Below are positions 14,596-61,984 of a DNA stretch of 64,000 bases, piece by piece (positions within the stretch are counted from its first letter, which is position 1; each line of letters opens with the position of its first letter). Position numbers and translations under genes: made by a program. The stretch comes from Promethearchaeota archaeon (GTDB lineage: Archaea; Asgardarchaeota; Lokiarchaeia; Sigyniarchaeales; SOKP01), in the NCBI GenBank assembly GCA_011364925.1, contig RDOA01000008.1:40744-104743 (forward strand), read 5' to 3'. The notes under the pieces were generated by a model. That model was not told where the DNA came from. It saw only the letters and a program-made list of their open reading frames with translations, and did no database searches.

Positions 14596-14661
14596 ATTAT
14601 AAACAATTGAATGCTTAATGATTCTTAACTCTTTTTTTTTCTATAAACTCATTTCAAAATA

Positions 14662-15141
14662 TTAAGGTTTATTTTTTAGAAATAAAATCGCCTTTGCTAT
14701 ATCTCCCTCGCTATCAATTAATGCAGCATTAGCCTCTTCCTTACTTACTTTTGCTTGAGTAGCTACTAACATTATATCATTTTCAGTAATAATCGTTTTT
14801 GTTTCAGATTCTTCGATTATTCCCTCTTCTTCCTCTTCTTCCCTTTCCCCAAACTGAACCTCGCCTACGGGATATTCCTCTGCTTCTCCTATCACTTGAT
14901 AAATTTCTTGACCCATTTGCTTCATTAATACGACTTCGGGTTGATCTATTACGAGTGTTTTATCGTAACTTTCGATTATTACGCGTGTGGCGTTAACTTG
15001 TTCCATATCTATTCCTTGTTGCTGCATTCGACGACGCATCTGTCGTGATGCAAATTGTTGACCTTCTCTTTTTTTTGTTGCTTGTGGACGTGTAGGTTTA
15101 CTTTTTTCCTTTTTTTGCATCTCTTTAGGCAATTTTACCAT
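14662..15141 (-). CDS. nac: Nascent polypeptide-associated complex protein
   Basis: RQMRRRMQQQGIDM, VIDQPEV...YQVIG, C-terminal UBA-like DIMLVATQ...GDIAKAIL. Confidence 0.92.
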   Translation of the reverse strand: MVKLPKEMQKKEKSKPTRPQATKKREGQQFASRQMRRRMQQQGIDMEQVNATRVIIESYDKTLVIDQPEVVLMKQMGQEIYQVIGEAEEYPVGEVQFGEREEEEEEGIIEESETKTIITENDIMLVATQAKVSKEEANAALIDSEGDIAKAILFLKNKP

Positions 15142-49934: not shown

Positions 49935-50378
49935 ATGGCAGAAGAATTCGCAAATTTCATGCAAGAAACAAAAAAAGCTCCACTTGAAGAAAAATTAAAC
50001 GCTTTTGGAGATATCGTTGAAAGAATGATGTCTGTTATTCTGAGGATTCCAGATTTAGTAGATCAGTCTCTAGCAAGTGTTGGACAAAGAATTTCAACTT
50101 TAGAGTCACGATTAACCACAATTAATAGTGAAGTGTCAGCTCTTAGAACAAGAGGTTCTGGAACAGCTCCAGTTATCGCTGCACCTTCTGCTCCTACGAG
50201 TGCTCCTCCGCCCACATCGGGTCCACCTGGAGGTCCCCCCGGTGGCCCACCTGGAGGCCCACCACCTCCGCCAGGAGGTCCTGGTGCAGCACGCCCAGCG
50301 AGTCCTGTAAGCTTAAGAGGTGCTATAATGGGCGAGCTAAAACAATTATTTTCAAAAAGAGCTCAATCAGGACAATAA
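49935..50378 (+). CDS. Coiled-coil + polyproline + C-terminal amphipathic helix protein (WASH/WAVE/VASP-like layout)
   Basis: RISTLESRLTTINSEVSAL coil; GPPGGPPGGPPGGPPPPPGGP; LRGAIMGELKQLFSKR; GGAG upstream. Confidence 0.7.
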   Translation: MAEEFANFMQETKKAPLEEKLNAFGDIVERMMSVILRIPDLVDQSLASVGQRISTLESRLTTINSEVSALRTRGSGTAPVIAAPSAPTSAPPPTSGPPGGPPGGPPGGPPPPPGGPGAARPASPVSLRGAIMGELKQLFSKRAQSGQ

Positions 50379-50503: not shown

Positions 50504-52246
50504 TTGGTTAATTCGGTGCCGAACGCATTAAATCGTGAAGTTGAATTCTCTAAAGTTAGAATTGCTCACGATTTTCAGAAGCAAATATTAGAAATCCCTT
50601 CTTTTATAAGAGTTCTCAATAATTATTATTATAATAAAACTGTTGTCCAATCAAAATTAAAACCTTTAGCATTAAGGAAATTCAAAGGAGGGAGGAAACC
50701 TTTAGAGACTAATAAAAATTGGCTTTATCTTCTTCCTACGCCTTTAAATGTCTTAAGTAGGGATTTACTTCATAAAAAAGATGCTTTTCAATTCCCAGAT
50801 AGCATTTTGTTATTTGAAGCTTGGATGAACTTAGGATTGGGTGCGTTATACCCTAGATTAGCGCTACACTATAAATTCCCAGGAATATTAAAGAATGAAA
50901 AAATAAGGCATGTTTTTCAATTCACATTTTCTACCTCAAGAGGATTTGGATTTCCAATCTATTTTGGACCACAATTTTATGAGTATTTTTTGACGATTGG
51001 TAAAATTCTTGAACCCTTATTTAAGTGGAGTCATACCATTTGTCATAGAGCTAATCAGGCCATATTTCTGGTCGGTAAGAGATATGGGATTAAAAGGCAT
51101 CATCCTGGGGAATTTGAATCAGTTATTATTTCAGAATATGAAAATAATATGTTTAAAGGGATTGACACTCTCCTTCATGGATATTTCACTCAAGACCCAA
51201 AAAAACTGGGAACATACTCAAATTTAGACGAGATTCTTGATAATACGATGTTTTCTTACTCTATTGGTGATCACGCTATGAGTATAGAAAGAAAAGTTAA
51301 GAATCAGACAATTACTATTCCTCTGATTACTCACGATTATATTGTTAACAAGTATAGTGTCAATTTTTATGAGTATCTAAAAGGTTTAATTTCCATCAAG
51401 AATCTTCTTATTAAAAAGATTTTGCTCTATAAAACGCAGAGAAAAGCATACATTAACAAATTAAAAAGAATCGATAAAATTAAATTTAGATTAAGCCAAT
51501 CTAAAAAAAAATCCATTCCCAATTTAAGATTGTTTAAACGATTTTCTAAAATTCAAGAATCTTCGCTTCACATTAAGCTTATGGAACAATTATTGGAAAT
51601 ATTATGGACTTCACCGTTGTACACTCACGCAATTCACCACAGTATAAATGAAGAAATCACTTCTCAAAAATCTACAGACAACGAAACCCTTACCAATTTT
51701 GAAAAAGATTCAATGGATTCAATATTTTTATTATATATAAAATTTTTCGAACAAAATAACGATTTTACATTTAAGGAAGTTGAAGTTTTTGACGAATTAA
51801 GGAAGGCTAGGGATCTAATAGGAACTATGTGGTTATCCTTTAAAGAAAAGCATTTTAAATTCGGTATTAAAAAAATAAATGAACTTTCACTTTTATCCAT
51901 TACCAGGCAAGATTATAATAAATTTGTAAACGATATGATAAATAACCTCATACCTATATTTTCAATTTACGAAATCTTTAATAGATCGCTTTCAGAATCC
52001 GTTTATCCAGAATCTATCCCTCAAACCAAACGAATAGGAGCTTATATCGCAAGTTTTTTAACATCAAGGTTCAATCCTTTTGGTGTAAATTTAATGAACC
52101 TCTTCAACAGGCTTGCCTTTTATAATTGGAGCTACTTCATTATAAAAAAGAAGCTTAATCGAACCAACTTTTTCAAATCAATTTTTAAGCTCCCTATATG
52201 GAAGTATATCCCTCCCAACATTGAAAAGAAAATTCTATCTTGTTAA
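50504..52246 (+). CDS. Hypothetical protein, 580 aa
   Basis: Long ORF; no recognised motif. Confidence 0.7.
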   Translation: MVNSVPNALNREVEFSKVRIAHDFQKQILEIPSFIRVLNNYYYNKTVVQSKLKPLALRKFKGGRKPLETNKNWLYLLPTPLNVLSRDLLHKKDAFQFPDSILLFEAWMNLGLGALYPRLALHYKFPGILKNEKIRHVFQFTFSTSRGFGFPIYFGPQFYEYFLTIGKILEPLFKWSHTICHRANQAIFLVGKRYGIKRHHPGEFESVIISEYENNMFKGIDTLLHGYFTQDPKKLGTYSNLDEILDNTMFSYSIGDHAMSIERKVKNQTITIPLITHDYIVNKYSVNFYEYLKGLISIKNLLIKKILLYKTQRKAYINKLKRIDKIKFRLSQSKKKSIPNLRLFKRFSKIQESSLHIKLMEQLLEILWTSPLYTHAIHHSINEEITSQKSTDNETLTNFEKDSMDSIFLLYIKFFEQNNDFTFKEVEVFDELRKARDLIGTMWLSFKEKHFKFGIKKINELSLLSITRQDYNKFVNDMINNLIPIFSIYEIFNRSLSESVYPESIPQTKRIGAYIASFLTSRFNPFGVNLMNLFNRLAFYNWSYFIIKKKLNRTNFFKSIFKLPIWKYIPPNIEKKILSC

Positions 52247-53035: not shown

Positions 53036-54148
53036 TTGATTTTAGGTATGGAACATACGAATATATCAATCGAAAACGATAAAAACTTAATAGAGAAGGT
53101 TCTTGATGATATAGATATGAGGTACATTGTTTTATTTCTCTATGTCATAAGAAATGACTTATTTAAAGATCTGGTTGATTCAGAACTGATTGAATCATAT
53201 GAGAAAGTCTTAATTCTAGACGAAATTTTTAAAAACAATATTTTAAACTTCTGGAATGATGAATTTATTGATGTAGCTATTGATTTAGGTTTATTCAAAA
53301 ACATACGAAGTATGAGAGAATTTCAGCAAAAAGAAGGAGACTTTATAATTCGCCTGGGTGAAGAAACTATAACAATTGAAAACAACACTATTTCAGTCCC
53401 AGATCATACATTATTCTTAATAATAAATAAGAAGTTCAAGTTCTTAACAAGAAGGAATTTTAACTCAGCTTTGATAAAATTGAAAGGAGTGCGGTGTGAG
53501 ATAAATAATGTTATCCATCCGTTTATCTCTGAAATAGGAGAACATGATTATACAATTCCAAATGATATTTATTACATTTTAGACCAATATGGTAATGTTT
53601 ATCAAGCGATTAAAATAGAAATTACAATCGAAGGTATGTATCAAAGGTATTTGGAAATCCAAGAAAAAATTGACAAATTTATTGAAATCTTCGAGCCAAA
53701 ATTAACGACTAAACCTTTTTTAAAGAAAATACATGAAGCCATAAAAGGAAAAAGAGACATTATCACGGCCTTAAAGGATGATAAGCTAGAATTGTCCGAG
53801 AAATTTGACTGTAGTAAAATTGATATAGAAAATCCAATTTTTAAAGACTGGAATTCCAAATTAATGCAATTGCTGAATTATTCATTTCAAATGAAGGAAA
53901 TAGAAAATCAAATACTAGATATTAAGAAATATTATTCCGGAAAGGGTAAAAAGTATAACTACCTTGAATTTATTGAGAAAATATCTTTTAATGAAAATAA
54001 CATTGTAAGCAATATTCAAGATGCTTTGATTAAACTTAGAGAAGAGTTAAAAGATATCAACAATCAAATTGAAATCTTAACAAAGAAAAAACTAAAACTA
54101 ATCAATTTGGATTATGAAAGATATTTAATAATGAGTAGTGATGAATAA
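53036..54148 (+). CDS. Winged-helix-like + coiled-coil hypothetical protein
   Basis: RRNFNSALIKL followed by a hairpin; C-terminal heptads; first gene of the cluster. Confidence 0.6.
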   Translation: MILGMEHTNISIENDKNLIEKVLDDIDMRYIVLFLYVIRNDLFKDLVDSELIESYEKVLILDEIFKNNILNFWNDEFIDVAIDLGLFKNIRSMREFQQKEGDFIIRLGEETITIENNTISVPDHTLFLIINKKFKFLTRRNFNSALIKLKGVRCEINNVIHPFISEIGEHDYTIPNDIYYILDQYGNVYQAIKIEITIEGMYQRYLEIQEKIDKFIEIFEPKLTTKPFLKKIHEAIKGKRDIITALKDDKLELSEKFDCSKIDIENPIFKDWNSKLMQLLNYSFQMKEIENQILDIKKYYSGKGKKYNYLEFIEKISFNENNIVSNIQDALIKLREELKDINNQIEILTKKKLKLINLDYERYLIMSSDE

Positions 54149-54150
54149 TT

Positions 54151-55107
54151 TTGAAATGTTCTGCGTGTAATATCGAAATGGAATCACTTGTTCCGGGAAT
54201 ATTCCAATGTCCACGTTGCAAAAAAATACAAAAACAAAAAGATGATAAAAAAGAGAAAGAAGCAGAAACACATATAGAGCAGGGGGAATTTCTGGATGGA
54301 GACTATTTCCATAAGAATGCTAGTCTTAATAAACAGTATGAAATTTGCGAAAAAGGAGTAATAATTGACAAAACAGAAACCCGCTTATTTGCTGCATTGA
54401 TATGTCATAGCGCTTATTTAAAAGATGAAAAATATATAAGACTCTCATGGTGGAAAACATATCAACATGCGGGTATGTTTAAAATATACGACAAAGATGT
54501 ATTGAATAATGTTATTACATCATTAGAAAAAATTAATGATAGTTTCGATGATGTTTGGAAATGGATTGGAAAATATGGTAAACAAGAACCTAAAACAGAA
54601 GAAATATTAGAAAAAGAAAAGTATTTAGAGTTACTCAGATCTCGGATAATTGAAAATCGTACCTGTCCAAAATGTCAAAAAAAAATGAATAAAGAAAAAT
54701 CTCACTACGAATGCCAACATTGTGGTGAGATTGTTATCCTTGAAGGCTACAACCAACCTATCTTTAACATACCTTCTAAAGAACTTGATTTATCCTTCCA
54801 AGCTAACTTTCCAATTAATTACTATATGCCTGTAAGTGGTATTACTGTAAAATGGCTTATGGGGGAATGGAAAGCAATAGTAATAATTCATTCTAAAGAT
54901 AATCCAAATAAAAAATGGCTCCGATTTTACTGGTGGATGAGAGATTTGAGTAATATTTTAAAATTTGGGCAAAGAGAGATAGGAGAGGGCACACAAATGG
55001 GCTGGAAAGCACAAAAAGGTATAGCTTCACCAAATATGTACGATAAAAAATTAGTAATCCCTTTAATTAAGGCGTTAAAGAAAATCCAAGCAGATTTAGA
55101 TTGGTAG
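54151..55107 (+). CDS. Tandem (Zn ribbon + PC4-like) repeat protein
   Basis: CSAC/CPRC and CPKC/CQHC ribbons each followed by KYIRLSWW...YDK and KWLRFYWW...YDK units. Confidence 0.6.
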   Translation: MKCSACNIEMESLVPGIFQCPRCKKIQKQKDDKKEKEAETHIEQGEFLDGDYFHKNASLNKQYEICEKGVIIDKTETRLFAALICHSAYLKDEKYIRLSWWKTYQHAGMFKIYDKDVLNNVITSLEKINDSFDDVWKWIGKYGKQEPKTEEILEKEKYLELLRSRIIENRTCPKCQKKMNKEKSHYECQHCGEIVILEGYNQPIFNIPSKELDLSFQANFPINYYMPVSGITVKWLMGEWKAIVIIHSKDNPNKKWLRFYWWMRDLSNILKFGQREIGEGTQMGWKAQKGIASPNMYDKKLVIPLIKALKKIQADLDW

Positions 55108-55132
55108 ATAATAACAATTTTTATAATAAATC

Positions 55133-56287
55133 GTGAAATTGATGGAAAATTTTAAAGATTCTACATGGAAAGAATTACTTCAAGACTTTCAAAAAGGTAT
55201 AGATAGAGCGATTGAAGAACTGGAAAATAGAGATGTAGAAAACATCCCTGGGGCAAAAGAAGCTCTTATCCAAAGATTAAAGAATATGAGGCTTCATTTT
55301 CCTAAGAACAATGGTGAGATCTTTCTAAAGTCAATTAATGATAAAATTCAAAACGCCTTCTTTCCAAACACGAAAGATTTTACTGAAGCTTTTGAAAAAA
55401 TAATCAAATCAAGAACACATGAACAAGATTTCATTATAAATGAGTTATTAAATGGTTTTGTAACATCAAAAGCTAAAGCCATAGCTTCAGGAACTCAGGG
55501 ACCTATAATAGATAGAATGGTAGAGGCTTTTAGTAGAAGAAACGACTTCCATATTGTAGATTATCAATTTTTTGCAATGTTTGGAGATCCTAATAAGCCT
55601 CGTCATCGTGTTAAAAACCAACTTGAAGAACTTGCTAAAATGTTTGGTTTAGTCTCAAAAGAACTTATTGTTGAAAAAGATGTAAGAAGAAGTGAAGAAA
55701 AGGTATACACATTTTATACTTTTCCTGATGGGATAATTAAAATTCTTGAAGAAAAATATTTGATAATCGATGAAGAATTAGGTTACGCTTATGTATCAGA
55801 AGCTTTTGATAGAAATGTATTTATTTGTATGTTTTTAGCTAATGTTGCAATCAATAGAGATAATATCAATAAGATTGGAGGATCTTACACTTTAAATGGT
55901 ATTTCTGCAATTTTTGCTCTAATTCTATTATTGAGTTTTTTACCCAAATTGAGTATAGATGAGACTAGTCCGATCCTCAACGATCCGAATTATGATCCAG
56001 AAAGCATGAGTGTGATACCGAAATCTTGGATGATGAAACAAGTTCTAGATCCTCTCTTTGAGCCTCTAATCAAAATAATTGCTTACAGGTTAGGAGGAGG
56101 TTTGTGGTTATCACATATAATCGATTCTGATATAAATAAGAGAATTCATAATCAAGTACGATTTTTAATTAAAGATGTTAACAAATGGATTTTAGGACAA
56201 TTAGTGAGAGTAGAAATCCCAATTTTCGTAGAGATTTCAAATATTTTCACAGAAATCGTTGTAGGGTATGAAGATGAACAATTATAA
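55133..56287 (+). CDS. Hypothetical protein, 384 aa
   Basis: Long ORF within a tight co-directional cluster. Confidence 0.7.
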   Translation: MKLMENFKDSTWKELLQDFQKGIDRAIEELENRDVENIPGAKEALIQRLKNMRLHFPKNNGEIFLKSINDKIQNAFFPNTKDFTEAFEKIIKSRTHEQDFIINELLNGFVTSKAKAIASGTQGPIIDRMVEAFSRRNDFHIVDYQFFAMFGDPNKPRHRVKNQLEELAKMFGLVSKELIVEKDVRRSEEKVYTFYTFPDGIIKILEEKYLIIDEELGYAYVSEAFDRNVFICMFLANVAINRDNINKIGGSYTLNGISAIFALILLLSFLPKLSIDETSPILNDPNYDPESMSVIPKSWMMKQVLDPLFEPLIKIIAYRLGGGLWLSHIIDSDINKRIHNQVRFLIKDVNKWILGQLVRVEIPIFVEISNIFTEIVVGYEDEQL

Positions 56288-56307
56288 TTATACGAGTTGT
56301 AAAACTA

Positions 56308-57615
56308 ATGAGTTACAAAAAGAAATCCACGAGAATTGAGAAACCTGGTAGAAAAAGAGAAAAGTGGACGGATATTCTTCCTCGATATCTTACATTTTTG
56401 ACACACATGCGCCCGATTTTAAGAGAAACCAGGAGAATTATAATTGATTTAGATGCAGATCTATTATTAGACCCTGAAATCCTAGATAAAATTAGAGAAG
56501 AAGAAGAAAAAAGAAACATCAGAAAAGTAAGAGCTTTATCCGAATTTTCTGCAATGTATAGATCAAATATCTACGAAATCATAAAAGATTTTTTAGTAAA
56601 ATATAGGGATCGAATTCCAGTAATTGATATTAAAGATTACATTATAGAATTTTTGTTCGAATCCATAGATGCGTTAAATGTATTACGACACATAACTAAC
56701 CCTGATGAACAGAATTTAGAAAAAACTTACTTATATGCTCTAGTTAAATTTATCGAAGAAAAGCTGCTTCCTCGAGGTAGAAATATAAACGTAATTTACA
56801 AAAAACTATTAGATGCTTCCCAAAACGTATATGAATGTCAAAGGCATATACTTCAACCACATACATACTATCGCGAAAAACTAGAGGATTCAGATTCATT
56901 TGAAATTCCAGGAATTTCCCCAAAAGTATATCAAATTATTAATAATATCACATCACTCCTTAATCTAGATCCTAATTTTGGAAACTTTCCTGAAAGAGAG
57001 AACCATGAAATCCCAATGATTTTAAAGGCTGATATTTTTAACCCATATATAGATTCAATAGCAAATGCAGAAGAAAACGCAGTTGGTCAAATTTCTGAAC
57101 GCATTGGACTTCGTATTATTGATGAGATTTTTCTCGCACCAAGAGAAAACTTAGTAGAAATCATGTTAGAAAATAATTTCGTACGTACCACTACACAATC
57201 TGATGGAACTATAAGATTATTACCCCAATTGAGCAATGAAACATTAATATTATACTATTTATCATTTGCTTCCCAAAGAAGAGGTTTCTTGACTAAAGAA
57301 TTAATAAATTGGATATCAATGAACTTCGCTTTTTTAATGTATATGGGGATTTTAAAATGGAAATTATCTGATCAAAACATTTTCTATCCAATTTTTAAAG
57401 ATTTACAAACCAATGAGAAAATTCTTCCTTACTTAATGAAACTTATCTGTTTTCCTAACTACTTAGGCATAGATAAAATGAAGATAAGGGATTCACCTCA
57501 GTATAGAAAAGAAATTTTCAACTTTATTGGTTCTCAAATAGATAATCTTAAAGATTTTATCAATGAAATAGCAATGTTTTGTGAAAAGTTTGATAAAGAA
57601 AGGAAAAATAACTAA
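56308..57615 (+). CDS. Hypothetical protein, 435 aa
   Basis: Long helical ORF within the cluster. Confidence 0.7.
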   Translation: MSYKKKSTRIEKPGRKREKWTDILPRYLTFLTHMRPILRETRRIIIDLDADLLLDPEILDKIREEEEKRNIRKVRALSEFSAMYRSNIYEIIKDFLVKYRDRIPVIDIKDYIIEFLFESIDALNVLRHITNPDEQNLEKTYLYALVKFIEEKLLPRGRNINVIYKKLLDASQNVYECQRHILQPHTYYREKLEDSDSFEIPGISPKVYQIINNITSLLNLDPNFGNFPERENHEIPMILKADIFNPYIDSIANAEENAVGQISERIGLRIIDEIFLAPRENLVEIMLENNFVRTTTQSDGTIRLLPQLSNETLILYYLSFASQRRGFLTKELINWISMNFAFLMYMGILKWKLSDQNIFYPIFKDLQTNEKILPYLMKLICFPNYLGIDKMKIRDSPQYRKEIFNFIGSQIDNLKDFINEIAMFCEKFDKERKNN

Positions 57616-58741
57616 TTTACTATTAAATGAGTTGAGAAAAATTAATAGTTCGAAAGAAACAGCGAGAGAAAATATAACATTTACTGATGATGTTATAAAA
57701 AATAGGATAGGAAAATATGGTGCAGTCTATTTTCCTTCCGACATTCAAGAGTCTATTGAGGATATCTTAGGCAATGAAACAAAGAAAGAAATTTTACATG
57801 ATTTTTTTAAAGCCTTGAAGAAATACCATGAATTTATTAAACAATTAAAAGGTTCGAAACTTAATCCTAGTTTAACTGTTCTCTTATATGGGCCTCCTGG
57901 GACCGGAAAAACTTCCCTTACAAGAGGATTTGCAAAGGAATACAATATACCGATTTGTGTTGTAGAAACTGATAGACTTGTATCTCCCCTGCTTGGAGAT
58001 ACTATAAAACAAATTAGAAATGTTGTAGAATTAGCAGCTGAAATTGCAAAAGAGAGAGGAGCTTTTATTTTATTTTTTGATGAGATTGATGCTATTGGAT
58101 CTGAACGATCTAATATCCACGAAGTCGGAGAGATAAAACGAGCTGTAATCTCTTTTTTACAAGTTGTTGATCGAGTTAATTATGAAGGAGTGCCATTAGC
58201 TATTTTTGGAGCCACTAATCATCAAAATCAGTTAGATTCTGCCATTTGGAGGCGATTCACCTTCCATTTTAGCTTTGAATTTCCTGATTATCAATTAAGA
58301 AATCAAATCATTAAATCATTTCTTGATAAAGTTGGAAAAGCAAAAATTGGGGTTGATGATTCAATATATACTAGTTTGAGAGATGAATTTAAAAGAATTC
58401 AAGAGTTGATTAACGATTTAGAACGCAAATTAGGTCATACTGTCTCTGAATTCGAAGGGGATATCTTCTGGGACGAATTTCATAAAAAATATAAGGAGAA
58501 GGGTTTAATTGAACTATCTAAAGGGTATTCGGGTTCAGATATAGAGAGAGGTACGAGAGTAGCATTATTAAAAGCGATTAATACCGAACGCCTAACCTAT
58601 GACCTTTTTTATAACTCATTAAAATTGGTTGGAGGTACGGCAATTCATGTAGAAAGACAAGATATTTTAAGTAATACGAAGCAAAAGATTTTTAGTACGA
58701 GTAGAGCAAAAGATGACCGAAAAAAACCACCAGAAATATAA
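57581..58741 (+). CDS. Single-domain AAA+ ATPase (SpoVK/IetA-like)
   Basis: [46 protein letters not shown]. Confidence 0.9.
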   Translation: MKSLIKKGKITNLLLNELRKINSSKETARENITFTDDVIKNRIGKYGAVYFPSDIQESIEDILGNETKKEILHDFFKALKKYHEFIKQLKGSKLNPSLTVLLYGPPGTGKTSLTRGFAKEYNIPICVVETDRLVSPLLGDTIKQIRNVVELAAEIAKERGAFILFFDEIDAIGSERSNIHEVGEIKRAVISFLQVVDRVNYEGVPLAIFGATNHQNQLDSAIWRRFTFHFSFEFPDYQLRNQIIKSFLDKVGKAKIGVDDSIYTSLRDEFKRIQELINDLERKLGHTVSEFEGDIFWDEFHKKYKEKGLIELSKGYSGSDIERGTRVALLKAINTERLTYDLFYNSLKLVGGTAIHVERQDILSNTKQKIFSTSRAKDDRKKPPEI

Positions 58742-58789
58742 AAATCTTATTAAAAAAATAGATTAAAAGGTTTTATTCAAATAAAAATC

Positions 58790-59824
58790 ATGGAAAATCA
58801 ATTATTTAACCTCAAGAAAATTAGAGAATTATTATCTCCAATTGAGCAACTTCAAAGTAACATTAACCAGTTAGAAAATTCAATTAATCAATTTAATACA
58901 CAAAAGAATTATATTTCTACATCTACCAAAAATGAAACCTTTCTCACTCAAATTAACGATATATCAAATCTCATCGAAAATATCAATGTAAACTTCAAAA
59001 TTGTCTTAACTAATAACATAAACTCACTTCTTTATATTAAAAATAAACTGACGAATAAATACAAGAAAAATTTAAAAGATAATTTAAAAAAAGTCGATTT
59101 AAAAAGTATTCACACAAAATCTATTGGTCAATCTTTAATAGAGAAGAAAAGTATCAGTAAAATTAAAAATGAGATATCTTATACTCCCTCTGTAAGCACA
59201 AAACAATGGTTAGAATTAATTGATGCTTTAAATAGAAACATACTTTTTGCAAATTCTGCAAAAAAACTTCAAGATAATTATCTAAAAAATATAAAAAATA
59301 AATTAACCAATGAATTAGAAAAAATTCCAAATAAAACCCCTCCTTCAATTATTGAAGAATTTAAAGCCCAATTCAATAAAAATCACGATTTGACTTATGA
59401 AGATTTTCTCAAAATATTTGATGGAAAATTTACAGAAAAGGAATTGCAAATTAAAGAAGAACTAGTATCTAAAAGAAAACAGAAACAAGAAATCGAAGAA
59501 TTAAAAAAAAAGCAAGAAGAACAAACAGAGACTTATGAAAGTTATTTGAAGTTATCAGAAGAAGAATTTGAAAGAAAATTGCGTAAAAGAAAAAGAGAAA
59601 AATTAACAGATGTTAAAGAACCAGGAAAACAAAGAAAGCTTGAACTCTCTGATGAAGTCACAGAAAAAATTCAAAAATTCAAAATGAAATTTGATAAGGA
59701 TTCGAACGATAACTTTTTAACAAAAGAGGAAAATGGAATAGATCCTATCAAGATTATCAGAGAAAGAAAAAGGAAAAATAAGAAAGAGTATCAAAAATAT
59801 AAAAATCATTTTGAATCTGACTAA
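58790..59824 (+). CDS. Lys/Glu/Asn-rich coiled-coil protein
   Basis: 344 aa heptad-rich, charged C-terminus. Confidence 0.65.
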   Translation: MENQLFNLKKIRELLSPIEQLQSNINQLENSINQFNTQKNYISTSTKNETFLTQINDISNLIENINVNFKIVLTNNINSLLYIKNKLTNKYKKNLKDNLKKVDLKSIHTKSIGQSLIEKKSISKIKNEISYTPSVSTKQWLELIDALNRNILFANSAKKLQDNYLKNIKNKLTNELEKIPNKTPPSIIEEFKAQFNKNHDLTYEDFLKIFDGKFTEKELQIKEELVSKRKQKQEIEELKKKQEEQTETYESYLKLSEEEFERKLRKRKREKLTDVKEPGKQRKLELSDEVTEKIQKFKMKFDKDSNDNFLTKEENGIDPIKIIRERKRKNKKEYQKYKNHFESD

Positions 59825-61448
59825 TAAAAGTGAAGTGAATCCAAAAATGAGTCAAAAAAAATCCGAACTCGACATTGGATCAAAAACGATTACAATAGAA
59901 GACAAAGTTACTCTTATTACGGGTAAGTTTAAACGAGAATTATTTCAGAAATACCAGAATAAAGAATTCATAGAAGTTATTGATGAGCTAGATTTAATTC
60001 CGGCGAATAAATTCGTCAGTCAGTTCCAGAATAAATCAGATGAATTAAAAGGTTTAGAACATTCTTTAAATATATTGGATTTTATAACAAGTTATCTAAG
60101 AATAACGGAATATAATTTAGAAGTATTTTCTAAATTTAATAATACTATTGAAATTATTTTAAGTGCTTTTGGATTTTTAAATTTAACAGAAACAAAATAT
60201 CAACTGGAAACAGAATTATCATTAGCAAAAAAGTATAAAAAATCCAGTGAATTATCAGCGATTGTAGATTTAATTAATAAGTTAAAGAAATCTATAAATG
60301 AGAATCAAATTAAGTTAAATTATATTAAAGAAGATTATTTACGACATAAAAATCAAGTAGATCAGTTAAAAAAAACCATAAACGGTTTCGAAGAAAGTAT
60401 TAAGGAATTAAATCAAATTAAAAAGAACTGTTTCAATCAAATAAATAGAATTACTAGACAAATAGAAGGAAATACTAGCCATCAAGATGAGAGTTCGTTA
60501 TCAGAATTAGGCGTAGAGAGCAATTTAACTAATGCAGAAAAAATAAGAGCACTCCAGAAGAAAGCAAAAGATTCTCAATATGAGATTAAACAAATTAAGT
60601 TAAAATCCAATCAAACGAAAGAAAAACTGGAGAAAATAACCCCACAGTATAATATTTATAAAAATGATTACGAGGCAATCTTAGAATCAATTAGAGAAGA
60701 TGAAAATCGAATAAAAGTAACACAAAATGAATATGAGAGAAAATTGTTAGATAATAACGAATCGCGAATTGAAGAGATAAAAGAATTTTCATTTTCTCCA
60801 GCAAGAACTGTAATAGAAATTGAGCATGAGCTCTCAAAAATTAATTCAGAATTGAAAGAACTTCCGATTTCAGAAAGTATCTCTGATAAAGAAAATGTTA
60901 TTAATCTAAACATTATAGTTAAGCGATTAAAAGAAATCGATGATATCCTACGGAATCATAACGATAAGATTTACATTCATAAAAGTGAAGAAGAACTTTC
61001 AAATGCTTTTGATAAATATTATCTTTTTGAGGGTGTTATAAAAGACTTAGAAGGTATTCTAAATGATTTCTTAAAAGAAATTAGTCTTGAAATGAAGTTC
61101 CTCCTTGTTATTAATGAATCTAATACTTCATTTTATCTAAAAACAGTTTTCGAGAGAAAAGATAAAGAAATTGCAAACTTTGAAGATCTTACGACTCCTG
61201 AAAAAATATTCTTTATTGTTTGTTTTTTTATCTCAAATGAAGTTCTTTTAGGACATAACAACATTGTTTTCTCAAATCTATTTATTCCTAAGATTTACAA
61301 TAAAGGTGGATCTATTTATCGTACGTTTAGAAGAATTATTCCCTTATTTGATACAAATGATAAATTAAGAAAATTTAAATTGATTTTTGTCATATCGAAT
61401 CTGGAATTAAAAAAAGACATCAATAATATCAAAATAATTAAAGTTTAG
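59811..61448 (+). CDS. SMC-like coiled-coil protein with degenerate ABC-ATPase head (ATG 59847 possible start)
   Basis: N-terminal TITIEDKVTLITGK; about 300 aa of coiled coil; C-terminal DLTTPEK / IVFSN / KLIFVISN where signature, Walker B and H-loop would lie. Confidence 0.65.
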   Translation: MNLTNKSEVNPKMSQKKSELDIGSKTITIEDKVTLITGKFKRELFQKYQNKEFIEVIDELDLIPANKFVSQFQNKSDELKGLEHSLNILDFITSYLRITEYNLEVFSKFNNTIEIILSAFGFLNLTETKYQLETELSLAKKYKKSSELSAIVDLINKLKKSINENQIKLNYIKEDYLRHKNQVDQLKKTINGFEESIKELNQIKKNCFNQINRITRQIEGNTSHQDESSLSELGVESNLTNAEKIRALQKKAKDSQYEIKQIKLKSNQTKEKLEKITPQYNIYKNDYEAILESIREDENRIKVTQNEYERKLLDNNESRIEEIKEFSFSPARTVIEIEHELSKINSELKELPISESISDKENVINLNIIVKRLKEIDDILRNHNDKIYIHKSEEELSNAFDKYYLFEGVIKDLEGILNDFLKEISLEMKFLLVINESNTSFYLKTVFERKDKEIANFEDLTTPEKIFFIVCFFISNEVLLGHNNIVFSNLFIPKIYNKGGSIYRTFRRIIPLFDTNDKLRKFKLIFVISNLELKKDINNIKIIKV

Positions 61449-61456
61449 AAGAGAGA

Positions 61457-61984
61457 ATGAAACTAAATATGGAAAATACAAATTTTGAAGAAACTGTAAA
61501 GAACATCTCTAAAATAGTGCTTACAAGTCCTCAAAAAATGATTCGAGAGGAAGACCTAAGAATTCTAAGTAAAAATTTCGATTTTGAAGAAATAATAAGC
61601 GCTGTTTATTTGAATTTAGTAAATATCGGTTTTGAGTTTATTAAATCAAAGTTTTTAGATCAAGTTTATTATATTTTAACCTCTGAAGGTAAAGATGATA
61701 ATGTAACACCTTCGCAATATGGTACGCTTGCGTTGATTATAGCGTATAGTAAGGAACTTGGAGAAAATTTAGAAATTACGGACTTAAAGGAGATTTTTAA
61801 AGAGGTTTGGAGCTCAGATATTGAATTTCTAATAGATAAGGATTATCTTAGAAAATTCGGAGATCAAAACATTCTCCGTGTTACCCCACTTGGAAAGGCT
61901 TTGTTAAAAAATGTCATTCAAGAACTAGATTTGAAGAAGCTATTAGATGTTATTACTACAAAAAATACACTTGATAAACTATAA
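61457..61984 (+). CDS. Tandem winged-helix protein (KITE/ScpB/Nse1/MksE-like)
   Basis: LVNIGFEFIK...YYIL; TPSQYGTLALII; LIDKDYLRK...RVTPLGKALL; directly after the SMC-like gene. Confidence 0.55.
   Translation: MKLNMENTNFEETVKNISKIVLTSPQKMIREEDLRILSKNFDFEEIISAVYLNLVNIGFEFIKSKFLDQVYYILTSEGKDDNVTPSQYGTLALIIAYSKELGENLEITDLKEIFKEVWSSDIEFLIDKDYLRKFGDQNILRVTPLGKALLKNVIQELDLKKLLDVITTKNTLDKL

Follow-up and report, generated by a model that had tools for sequence, protein, structure and literature searches.

An order-wide operon of Promethearchaeales with an ATPase-dead, apparently SMC5/6-derived mini-SMC and an intact AAA+ ATPase

An ATP cycle of its own is the defining property of an SMC complex. 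How, then, can we understand an operon in which the SMC-like protein has lost its ATPase motifs whereas a neighboring AAA+ ATPase keeps all of them? This question is raised by a 64,000-nucleotide stretch of a Promethearchaeota archaeon genome (contig RDOA01000008.1, positions 40,744 to 104,743; hereafter the window, in whose own numbering all positions are given unless a locus is named). Here, eight open reading frames (ORFs), g1 to g8, of 370, 318, 384, 435, 386, 344, 545 and 175 amino acids (aa) follow one another on the + strand at 53036-61984. Gaps between them are 2, 25, 20, -35, 48, -14 and 8 base pairs (bp) from g1 to g8, which confirms the tight packing described in a first-pass annotation made from the letters of the sequence. 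Scans of the eight proteins with Pfam, NCBIfam and PADLOC put a name on g5 alone, and a literature search, with most subscription papers outside its reach, found no description of the eight-gene operon. Our answer is that g1-g8 constitute a third, SMC5/6-derived system of Promethearchaeales, existing beside an intact Smc-ScpAB, a pan-Asgard SMC5/6-related operon and Rad50-Mre11, all of which this genome also has. As to what the system does, we tentatively favor a non-extruding DNA clamp that is remodeled by the AAA+ ATPase and has a housekeeping role, a reading that we regard as possible rather than probable.

The SMC-like protein is g7 (59811-61448; 545 aa), a hinge-less, ATPase-dead mini-SMC. 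It has the layout of the SMC superfamily, namely a split ABC head and an antiparallel coiled coil, and aligns with the pan-Asgard SMC5/6-related SMC (HHalign P97, E 6e-11) as well as with TIGR02168 (E 9e-8). Walker A, signature and Walker B motifs are found in none of 37 g7 orthologues; in the window, a P-loop remnant lies at about 59916-59942, LTTPEK takes the place of the signature (61188-61205) and IVFSN that of Walker B (61263-61277). The alignment contains neither a hinge nor a CxxC hook, the arms being joined by a short variable loop, and Pfam gives no hinge match in g7 whereas it gives one in the other SMC5/6-related protein of the genome. Matches of g7 to JetC, LmuB and Rad50 in the PADLOC, NCBIfam and Pfam scans were set aside as being of coiled-coil level only. 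Next to it, g8 (61457-61984; 175 aa) is a tandem winged-helix (WH) KITE of the Nse1/Nse3 type (HHalign matches including E 9e-5), whose profile matches the Nse1/3-like KITE loci of the pan-Asgard operon and, weakly, NSE3/MAGE-G1 (E 0.4-0.9). PDB profile searches with g7, g8 and also g2 returned nothing significant. The SMC/KITE ancestry and the inactive SMC head proposed in the first-pass annotation both hold, the former by HHalign matches to SMC and KITE profiles (P97 and P95 for g7, P98 for g8).

What, in such an operon, can still hydrolyze ATP? The separate AAA+ ATPase that had been noticed is g5 (57581-58741; 386 aa), an intact, single-domain, IetA-like member of the classical clade, matching PF00004 at E 3e-26. 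Its Walker A (about 57890-57913), Walker B, sensor 1 and arginine finger are kept in 19 of 19 orthologues. The best profile match is IetA of PADLOC (E 4e-57), with TRIP13 at E 2e-19; it is to be noted that its 173 bits lie below the NCBIfam cut-off of 510 for IetA. CdvC is also matched (E 4e-22), as expected of any classical AAA, and no MIT domain was recognised in g5. Neither an S8 protease nor a HORMA partner is present among the eight genes. A comparison with PADLOC had been suggested together with the annotation.

Is this arrangement a peculiarity of one genome? Eighty relative loci were fetched with g4, and 59 of them contain all eight genes; gene order and strand are identical in 59/59, so the arrangement is not due to chance, and the scattering of genes in relatives that would have spoken against the annotation is not seen among these loci. 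Throughout the 80 loci no gene of the eight is absent wherever the contig has room. Inside the own family this synteny is discounted because the flanking genes are equally conserved there. In the sister family, where g3 and g4 are 44-53% identical, the block is kept while its outer neighbors differ, and two single-contig genomes of that family (6,035,313 and 4,324,194 bp) hold all eight genes in the same order. A g3 profile matches 118/134 genomes of one family and 13/14 of the other, together 131/148 of the order, essentially in single copy. Beyond these it detects divergent members in a single additional family, and no match in the rest of the Asgard genomes searched is credible. Three other families gave weak g3 matches (E about 1e-4) that appear to be spurious; the two inspected lack an operon. 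As far as these searches reach, the system appears to be order-wide (Promethearchaeales, plus sparse divergent copies, e.g., in Helarchaeales) and not Asgard-wide; conservation is thus of the core rather than the patchy kind, but on the scale of an order instead of all Asgard archaea, as the annotation had considered. Median ratios of nonsynonymous to synonymous substitution (dN/dS) are 0.26-0.31 for g6 and g7 and 0.07-0.16 for the other six genes, with just two pairs behind the g5 value, which indicates that all eight genes are under purifying selection; identity across the family is about 81% for g3 and about 80% for g4. One divergent dead-type operon (L194:2890-13583) has g2 moved to the front, a 678-aa gene at the position of g7 and an additional 463-aa gene whose product begins with a zinc ribbon and weakly resembles g1.

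From what kind of operon has the dead type emerged? A search of 1.8 billion representatives with the g3 profile gave 38 matches, and those divergent full-length g3 homologues that can be placed on long enough contigs sit in operons of the order g1-(g2)-g3-g4-AAA-SMC. There, the SMC is of 1030-1200 aa and, except at one locus (L188), keeps Walker A, signature and Walker B; downstream of it, where the contig reaches, come a WH protein, a kleisin and a KITE, of about 290, 280 and 165 aa, respectively. Such intact operons were found at L114, L177, L186/187 and L189, with partial copies at L178-180, L184 and L193, and some of them have a third g3/g4 paralogue. The top PDB match of one intact-type SMC is SMC6 (E 2e-14), with archaeal Smc heads close behind, and with the intact-type kleisin the profile of the pan-Asgard kleisin is matched at P97 and Nse4_C weakly. 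g8 aligns with the KITE of intact operons (HHalign P98, E 2e-14), g7 with the C-arm and head of an intact operon's SMC (HHalign P95, E 4e-8), and in the AAA tree the dead-type AAAs make up one clade (99/94) inside a clade of dead and intact types (100/99). Because of these homologies and this nesting, the window operon very probably is a reduced descendant of a g1-(g2)-g3-g4-AAA-SMC-WH-kleisin-KITE operon, in which the SMC would have been halved with loss of hinge and ATPase, and the WH and kleisin genes lost, g6 standing in their place. Around the intact-type operons there are further genes. At L200:1025-4972 and L184:1-3288, an E2-E1 fusion (UQ_con+ThiF) and Prok-JAB genes lie directly upstream of an intact-type operon with a third g3/g4 paralogue, possibly a sign of a defense island or of a ubiquitin-like link; at L180:885-3878, a divergently oriented second SMC gene of 997 aa adjoins the operon. 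In other Asgard families (L204, L206-L211) an SMC of about 950-995 aa is followed by a putative kleisin, a KITE that is roughly as close to g8 as to the pan-Asgard KITE, and a small Cys-rich gene, with no AAA adjacent.

The two types can apparently be exchanged. In the complete genome G210 (L114), the usual locus is occupied by an intact-type operon in reverse orientation, flanked by a canonical g2 (1483-2457 of L114) and a canonical g8 stub (14654-14839) beside galK; canonical g3 or g4 was not found there, and a genome of the same genus keeps the dead-type operon. L186 has the same head-on g2. We read this as replacement of a dead operon in place by an intact one, which hints that the two types share a job. 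Loss of the SMC ATPase also was not a single event. At L188:14390-18704, a 1034-aa SMC has lost all motifs, the kleisin is truncated to 182 aa and the WH gene is missing, while the AAA is intact. In the AAA tree, this AAA branches apart from the dead-type clade: the SMC has died at least twice, with the AAA kept each time.

If the kleisin gene has been lost, what holds g7 and g8 together? The candidate is g6 (58790-59824; 344 aa), a helical protein confined to the dead-type operon. Profile comparisons revealed no homology of g6 to kleisin, WH or SMC families, and the idea that it had diverged from a kleisin, a WH protein or a piece of an SMC was rejected on this basis; no C-terminal WH is seen by sequence, and the ESM Atlas gave no usable match for g6 or for g4. 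A conserved basic stretch lies near residues 250-275. Prediction of a g7+g8+g6 complex scored 0.73 against 0.42 for the best control, beyond a mark that, in a calibration whose counts hold only roughly for this job, 58 of 80 solved pairs and 2 of 110 mismatched ones attained; the runs share at least 82% of contacts, and partner pLDDT is at least 66. In the model, residues 1-129 of g6 run along the head-proximal coiled coil of g7 (residues 88-128 and 364-400) and sit on g8. The N-half of a kleisin binds the SMC neck and KITE in the same pattern, and thus g6 may stand in for it; from the model, we think it probable that g6 attaches in this manner to the neck of g7 and to the KITE. This predicted binding refines the earlier label of g6 as a coiled coil.

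The remaining four genes, g1 to g4, accompany the AAA in both types of operon, as the layout above implies for all but the optional g2. g1 (53036-54148; 370 aa) occurs in dead and intact operons. It probably starts at ATG 53048 (366 aa) because the N-terminus is conserved from there. Its AlphaFold2 (AF2) model (pLDDT 92) has an N-terminal WH with an insertion and then a three-helix bundle, with no second WH after the bundle. The best match of this WH is residues 1-112 of 9qe0_E (Z 9.8, root mean square deviation (rmsd) 2.8, 93 residues aligned), tied with TubR (Z 9.3); we infer that this 495-residue chain of Wadjet-II is JetA and that the matched part is its N-terminal winged-helix domain (nWHD). 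An origin of g1 as an Nse4-like kleisin was ruled out by sequence profile comparison. Near-invariant His7, Asp15, Arg29, Cys154 and His161 of g1 could form a metal or catalytic site. g2 (54151-55107; 318 aa) consists of two copies of a unit of C4 zinc ribbon and aromatic beta-meander/helix with invariant Cys, Trp and Tyr, and the halves align with each other (HHalign P98, E 1e-14). The tandem duplication in the earlier label of tandem PC4-like protein is therefore real, but the PC4 part is a likeness by eye only, neither PF02229 (PC4) nor PDB profiles giving a match. g3 (55133-56287; 384 aa) and g4 (56308-57615; 435 aa) had been called orphans; they are in fact paralogues sharing a domain of about 250 aa (HHalign P98.6, E 6e-16). 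The AF2 model of the helical g3 (pLDDT 81) has a central WH at residues 120-201 (about 55490-55735), whose top matches are C-terminal winged-helix domains (cWHDs) of kleisins, namely Scc1 (Z 8.4, rmsd 2.4, 67 aligned) and also Brn1, ScpA and Rad21. Foldseek, a comparison also foreseen earlier, gave no match at E<=0.001 with the g1 and g3 models. For g3 no whole-fold match was found and a shape search of the Atlas gave nothing above TM 0.3 by query, which is not proof of a new fold; a HORMA fold was rejected, being absent from the fold-match lists. g4 has no match in Pfam, PADLOC, NCBIfam or the Atlas.

How does this operon compare with known systems? Archaeal SMC5/6-related SMC-kleisin-kite operons, including an extra Asgard copy, have been described (Yoshinaga & Inagaki 2021, PMC8665677; 10.1101/2024.01.07.573240), and the latter work, a preprint, adds a third SMC complex of Asgard archaea whose kite is called 'Nse3-related'. 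It reports no AAA, dead SMC or partners, nor does the former, and the term AAA is absent from the main texts of both. Table 3 of the preprint appears to score this kite in two Lokiarchaeia, and it may be g8. The present operon shares with them a homologous SMC head and arm, the Nse1/3-type KITE, an ancestral form with SMC, kleisin and KITE, and its place as an extra copy beside two SMC operons. It differs from them in the halved g7, which lacks both hinge and ATPase motifs, in having no kleisin that can be recognised from its sequence, and in the addition of a seemingly active AAA+, g1-g4 and g6. The pan-Asgard operon of the same genome (L130:2528-8479, on contig C32) consists of a motif-dead AAA, an intact SMC5/6-related SMC, a kleisin and a KITE. 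Its heading AAA is homologous to g5 (P99), and in most lineages the AAA motifs have decayed while the SMC is intact; judged by motifs, it looks like the mirror image of the g1-g8 operon. In one family (L163, L172) the pan-Asgard AAA retains Walker A, beside a short SMC of 835 aa.

Resemblance to eukaryotic Smc5/6 (Nse1-Nse3-Nse4, Nse2) lies in the SMC6 match of the intact relative and the weak NSE3/MAGE-G1 match of g8, and the predicted helices of g6 on g7 recall Nse4-N or Nse2 on an SMC arm. The SMC heterodimer, hinge, SMC ATPase and RING/SUMO ligase domain are missing from g1-g8, however, and a dedicated AAA+ gene is present instead. As ATPase motifs and hinge are lacking in g7, the operon is related to SMC5/6-type complexes without being a strict member. 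Wadjet (JetABCD) and MukBEF also combine SMC, KITE and WH proteins in one operon, and the WH-plus-bundle of g1 resembles the JetA/MukF N-terminus, whose layout is described in 10.1101/2025.03.10.642339; unlike them, g1-g8 have a dead SMC, a KITE of Nse1/3 and not MukE/JetB type, a core distribution and no JetD Toprim nuclease. JetD and Toprim models indeed have no match among the eight proteins, as the annotation had observed; a genome-wide PF09664 (JetD) search was made without a positive control. Among the likenesses first listed, SMC5/6 thus survives, but MukBEF, Wadjet and ClsN are not nearest. With IetAS the operon shares a classical-clade AAA that IetA profiles match best; it departs from IetAS, TRIP13/Pch2 and p97-type systems in the score far under the IetA cut-off, the lack of an S8 protease or HORMA partner in the block and the non-aromatic pore loop. 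For want of JetD it is not Wadjet, and for want of a protease it is not IetAS.

The genes flanking the block are of core type and lie on the opposite strand; they include one for an Elf1-like zinc-ribbon protein, recognised by eye in the translation, and an Lsm gene, named by Pfam, and no mobility genes were seen among the ORFs of 46-64 kb of the window, in agreement with the core-gene region of the first-pass annotation. The window also has a conserved 210-aa coiled-coil gene (49163-49795), then that of a conserved 147-aa protein (49935-50378) with an N-terminal coiled coil, a polyproline tract and a short C-terminal helix, WASP/WH2-like by eye and with nothing significant in Pfam, and a conserved 580-aa gene (50504-52246) that is missing at the locus in many relatives. 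In the one RNA run, coverage is even and in long contigs over all of the 19 kb, which probably means that DNA was present, and the run is therefore uninformative on co-transcription; a sigma-70 promoter scan at the operon stayed at chance level, that consensus being unsuited to archaea.

How could such parts work? g7 would not extrude loops, since it has no hinge and no ATP cycle. The g6-g7-g8 complex may be a static DNA clamp or landmark, held on DNA by the KITE and the basic stretch of g6, with the WH and zinc-ribbon proteins g1-g4 binding DNA or serving as adaptors. A hexamer of g5, the sole recognisable enzyme, would load, remodel or strip the complex, like TRIP13/Pch2 or p97 on chromatin factors, in housekeeping chromosome maintenance. 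A more ambitious version, which we consider doubtful, is that all eight proteins are one chromosome machine, with the AAA+ ring now its motor in place of the SMC ATPase, and that the tasks of the kleisin are divided among g6 (binding of neck and KITE), g1 (nWHD and bundle) and g3/g4 (cWHD-like). Several facts weigh against the clamp. Pore loop 1 of g5 has Leu and not the aromatic residue typical of threading unfoldases; the WH fold matches of g1 and g3 (Z 8-10) are near background and are leads only; helix-on-coiled-coil packing is easy to predict, and the complex job used three chains with custom alignments, unlike the calibration. In addition, rates of evolution are unequal, with g6 and g7 (40-43% identity) changing far more quickly than g3 and g4 (80%), and the operon is broken at the g5/g6 junction in G008 and at the g3/g4 junction in G030. 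The break in G008 and the unequal rates would suit two modules that share an operon by inheritance, an AAA module of g1-g5 with its own substrates and a structural remnant of g6-g7-g8 independent of g5, as would the fact that g1-g5 are recognisable whether an intact or a dead SMC comes next. We hold this rather unlikely: g1, g3, g4 and the AAA are always with an SMC-type cassette where the locus has room, even at 20% identity, the pan-Asgard SMC5/6-related operon likewise begins with an AAA-family gene, and in G210 the whole block was exchanged as a unit.

Could the system be instead a domesticated device of surveillance or defense, sensing extrachromosomal DNA like Wadjet or eukaryotic Smc5/6, with the IetA-like ATPase triggering an effector (g3/g4 or g2)? 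Intact versions are patchy and divergent and occur in varied contexts, one adjoining the E2-E1 (UQ_con+ThiF) and JAB genes and another near an NYN gene; the in-place replacement in G210, the IetA match of g5 and the Wadjet chain as top match of the g1 WH point in the same direction. The dead type, however, keeps to one copy and one fixed locus, occurs in about 89% of draft genomes and is under strong purifying selection, the block has no nuclease, Toprim or S8 protease, and the JetC/LmuB matches of PADLOC do not go beyond coiled coils, so that we judge such a role unlikely. A cell-division or cytoskeletal assembly unrelated to DNA, in which a coiled-coil scaffold is taken apart by a Vps4/CdvC-like ATPase, is very improbable. 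The CdvC score of g5, which any classical AAA would reach, and a weak coiled-coil match to CdvA are what speaks for it; g7 and g8, however, descend from SMC and KITE, g1 and g3 have WH folds, and g5 is much closer to IetA and has no recognised MIT domain. The division role offered in the first-pass annotation thus finds no support, and the clamp remodeled by an AAA+ ATPase remains our preferred, though tentative, reading.

What does this operon mean for the biology of SMC proteins? ATPase motifs are unusually divided in it, the SMC being dead and the AAA+ intact. A hinge-less dead SMC that is kept under purifying selection throughout an entire order with a KITE, a kleisin-like linker and an intact AAA+ would imply either a function of SMC independent of its motor or powering from outside. 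If the eight proteins truly made up one machine, it would be an unrecognised AAA-SMC partnership in relatives of eukaryotes, mirroring the pan-Asgard SMC5/6 operon. Nature has supplied intact, independently dead and swapped versions of the operon as a ready comparison series, and the system bears on the origin and the still-unclear core function of eukaryotic Smc5/6.

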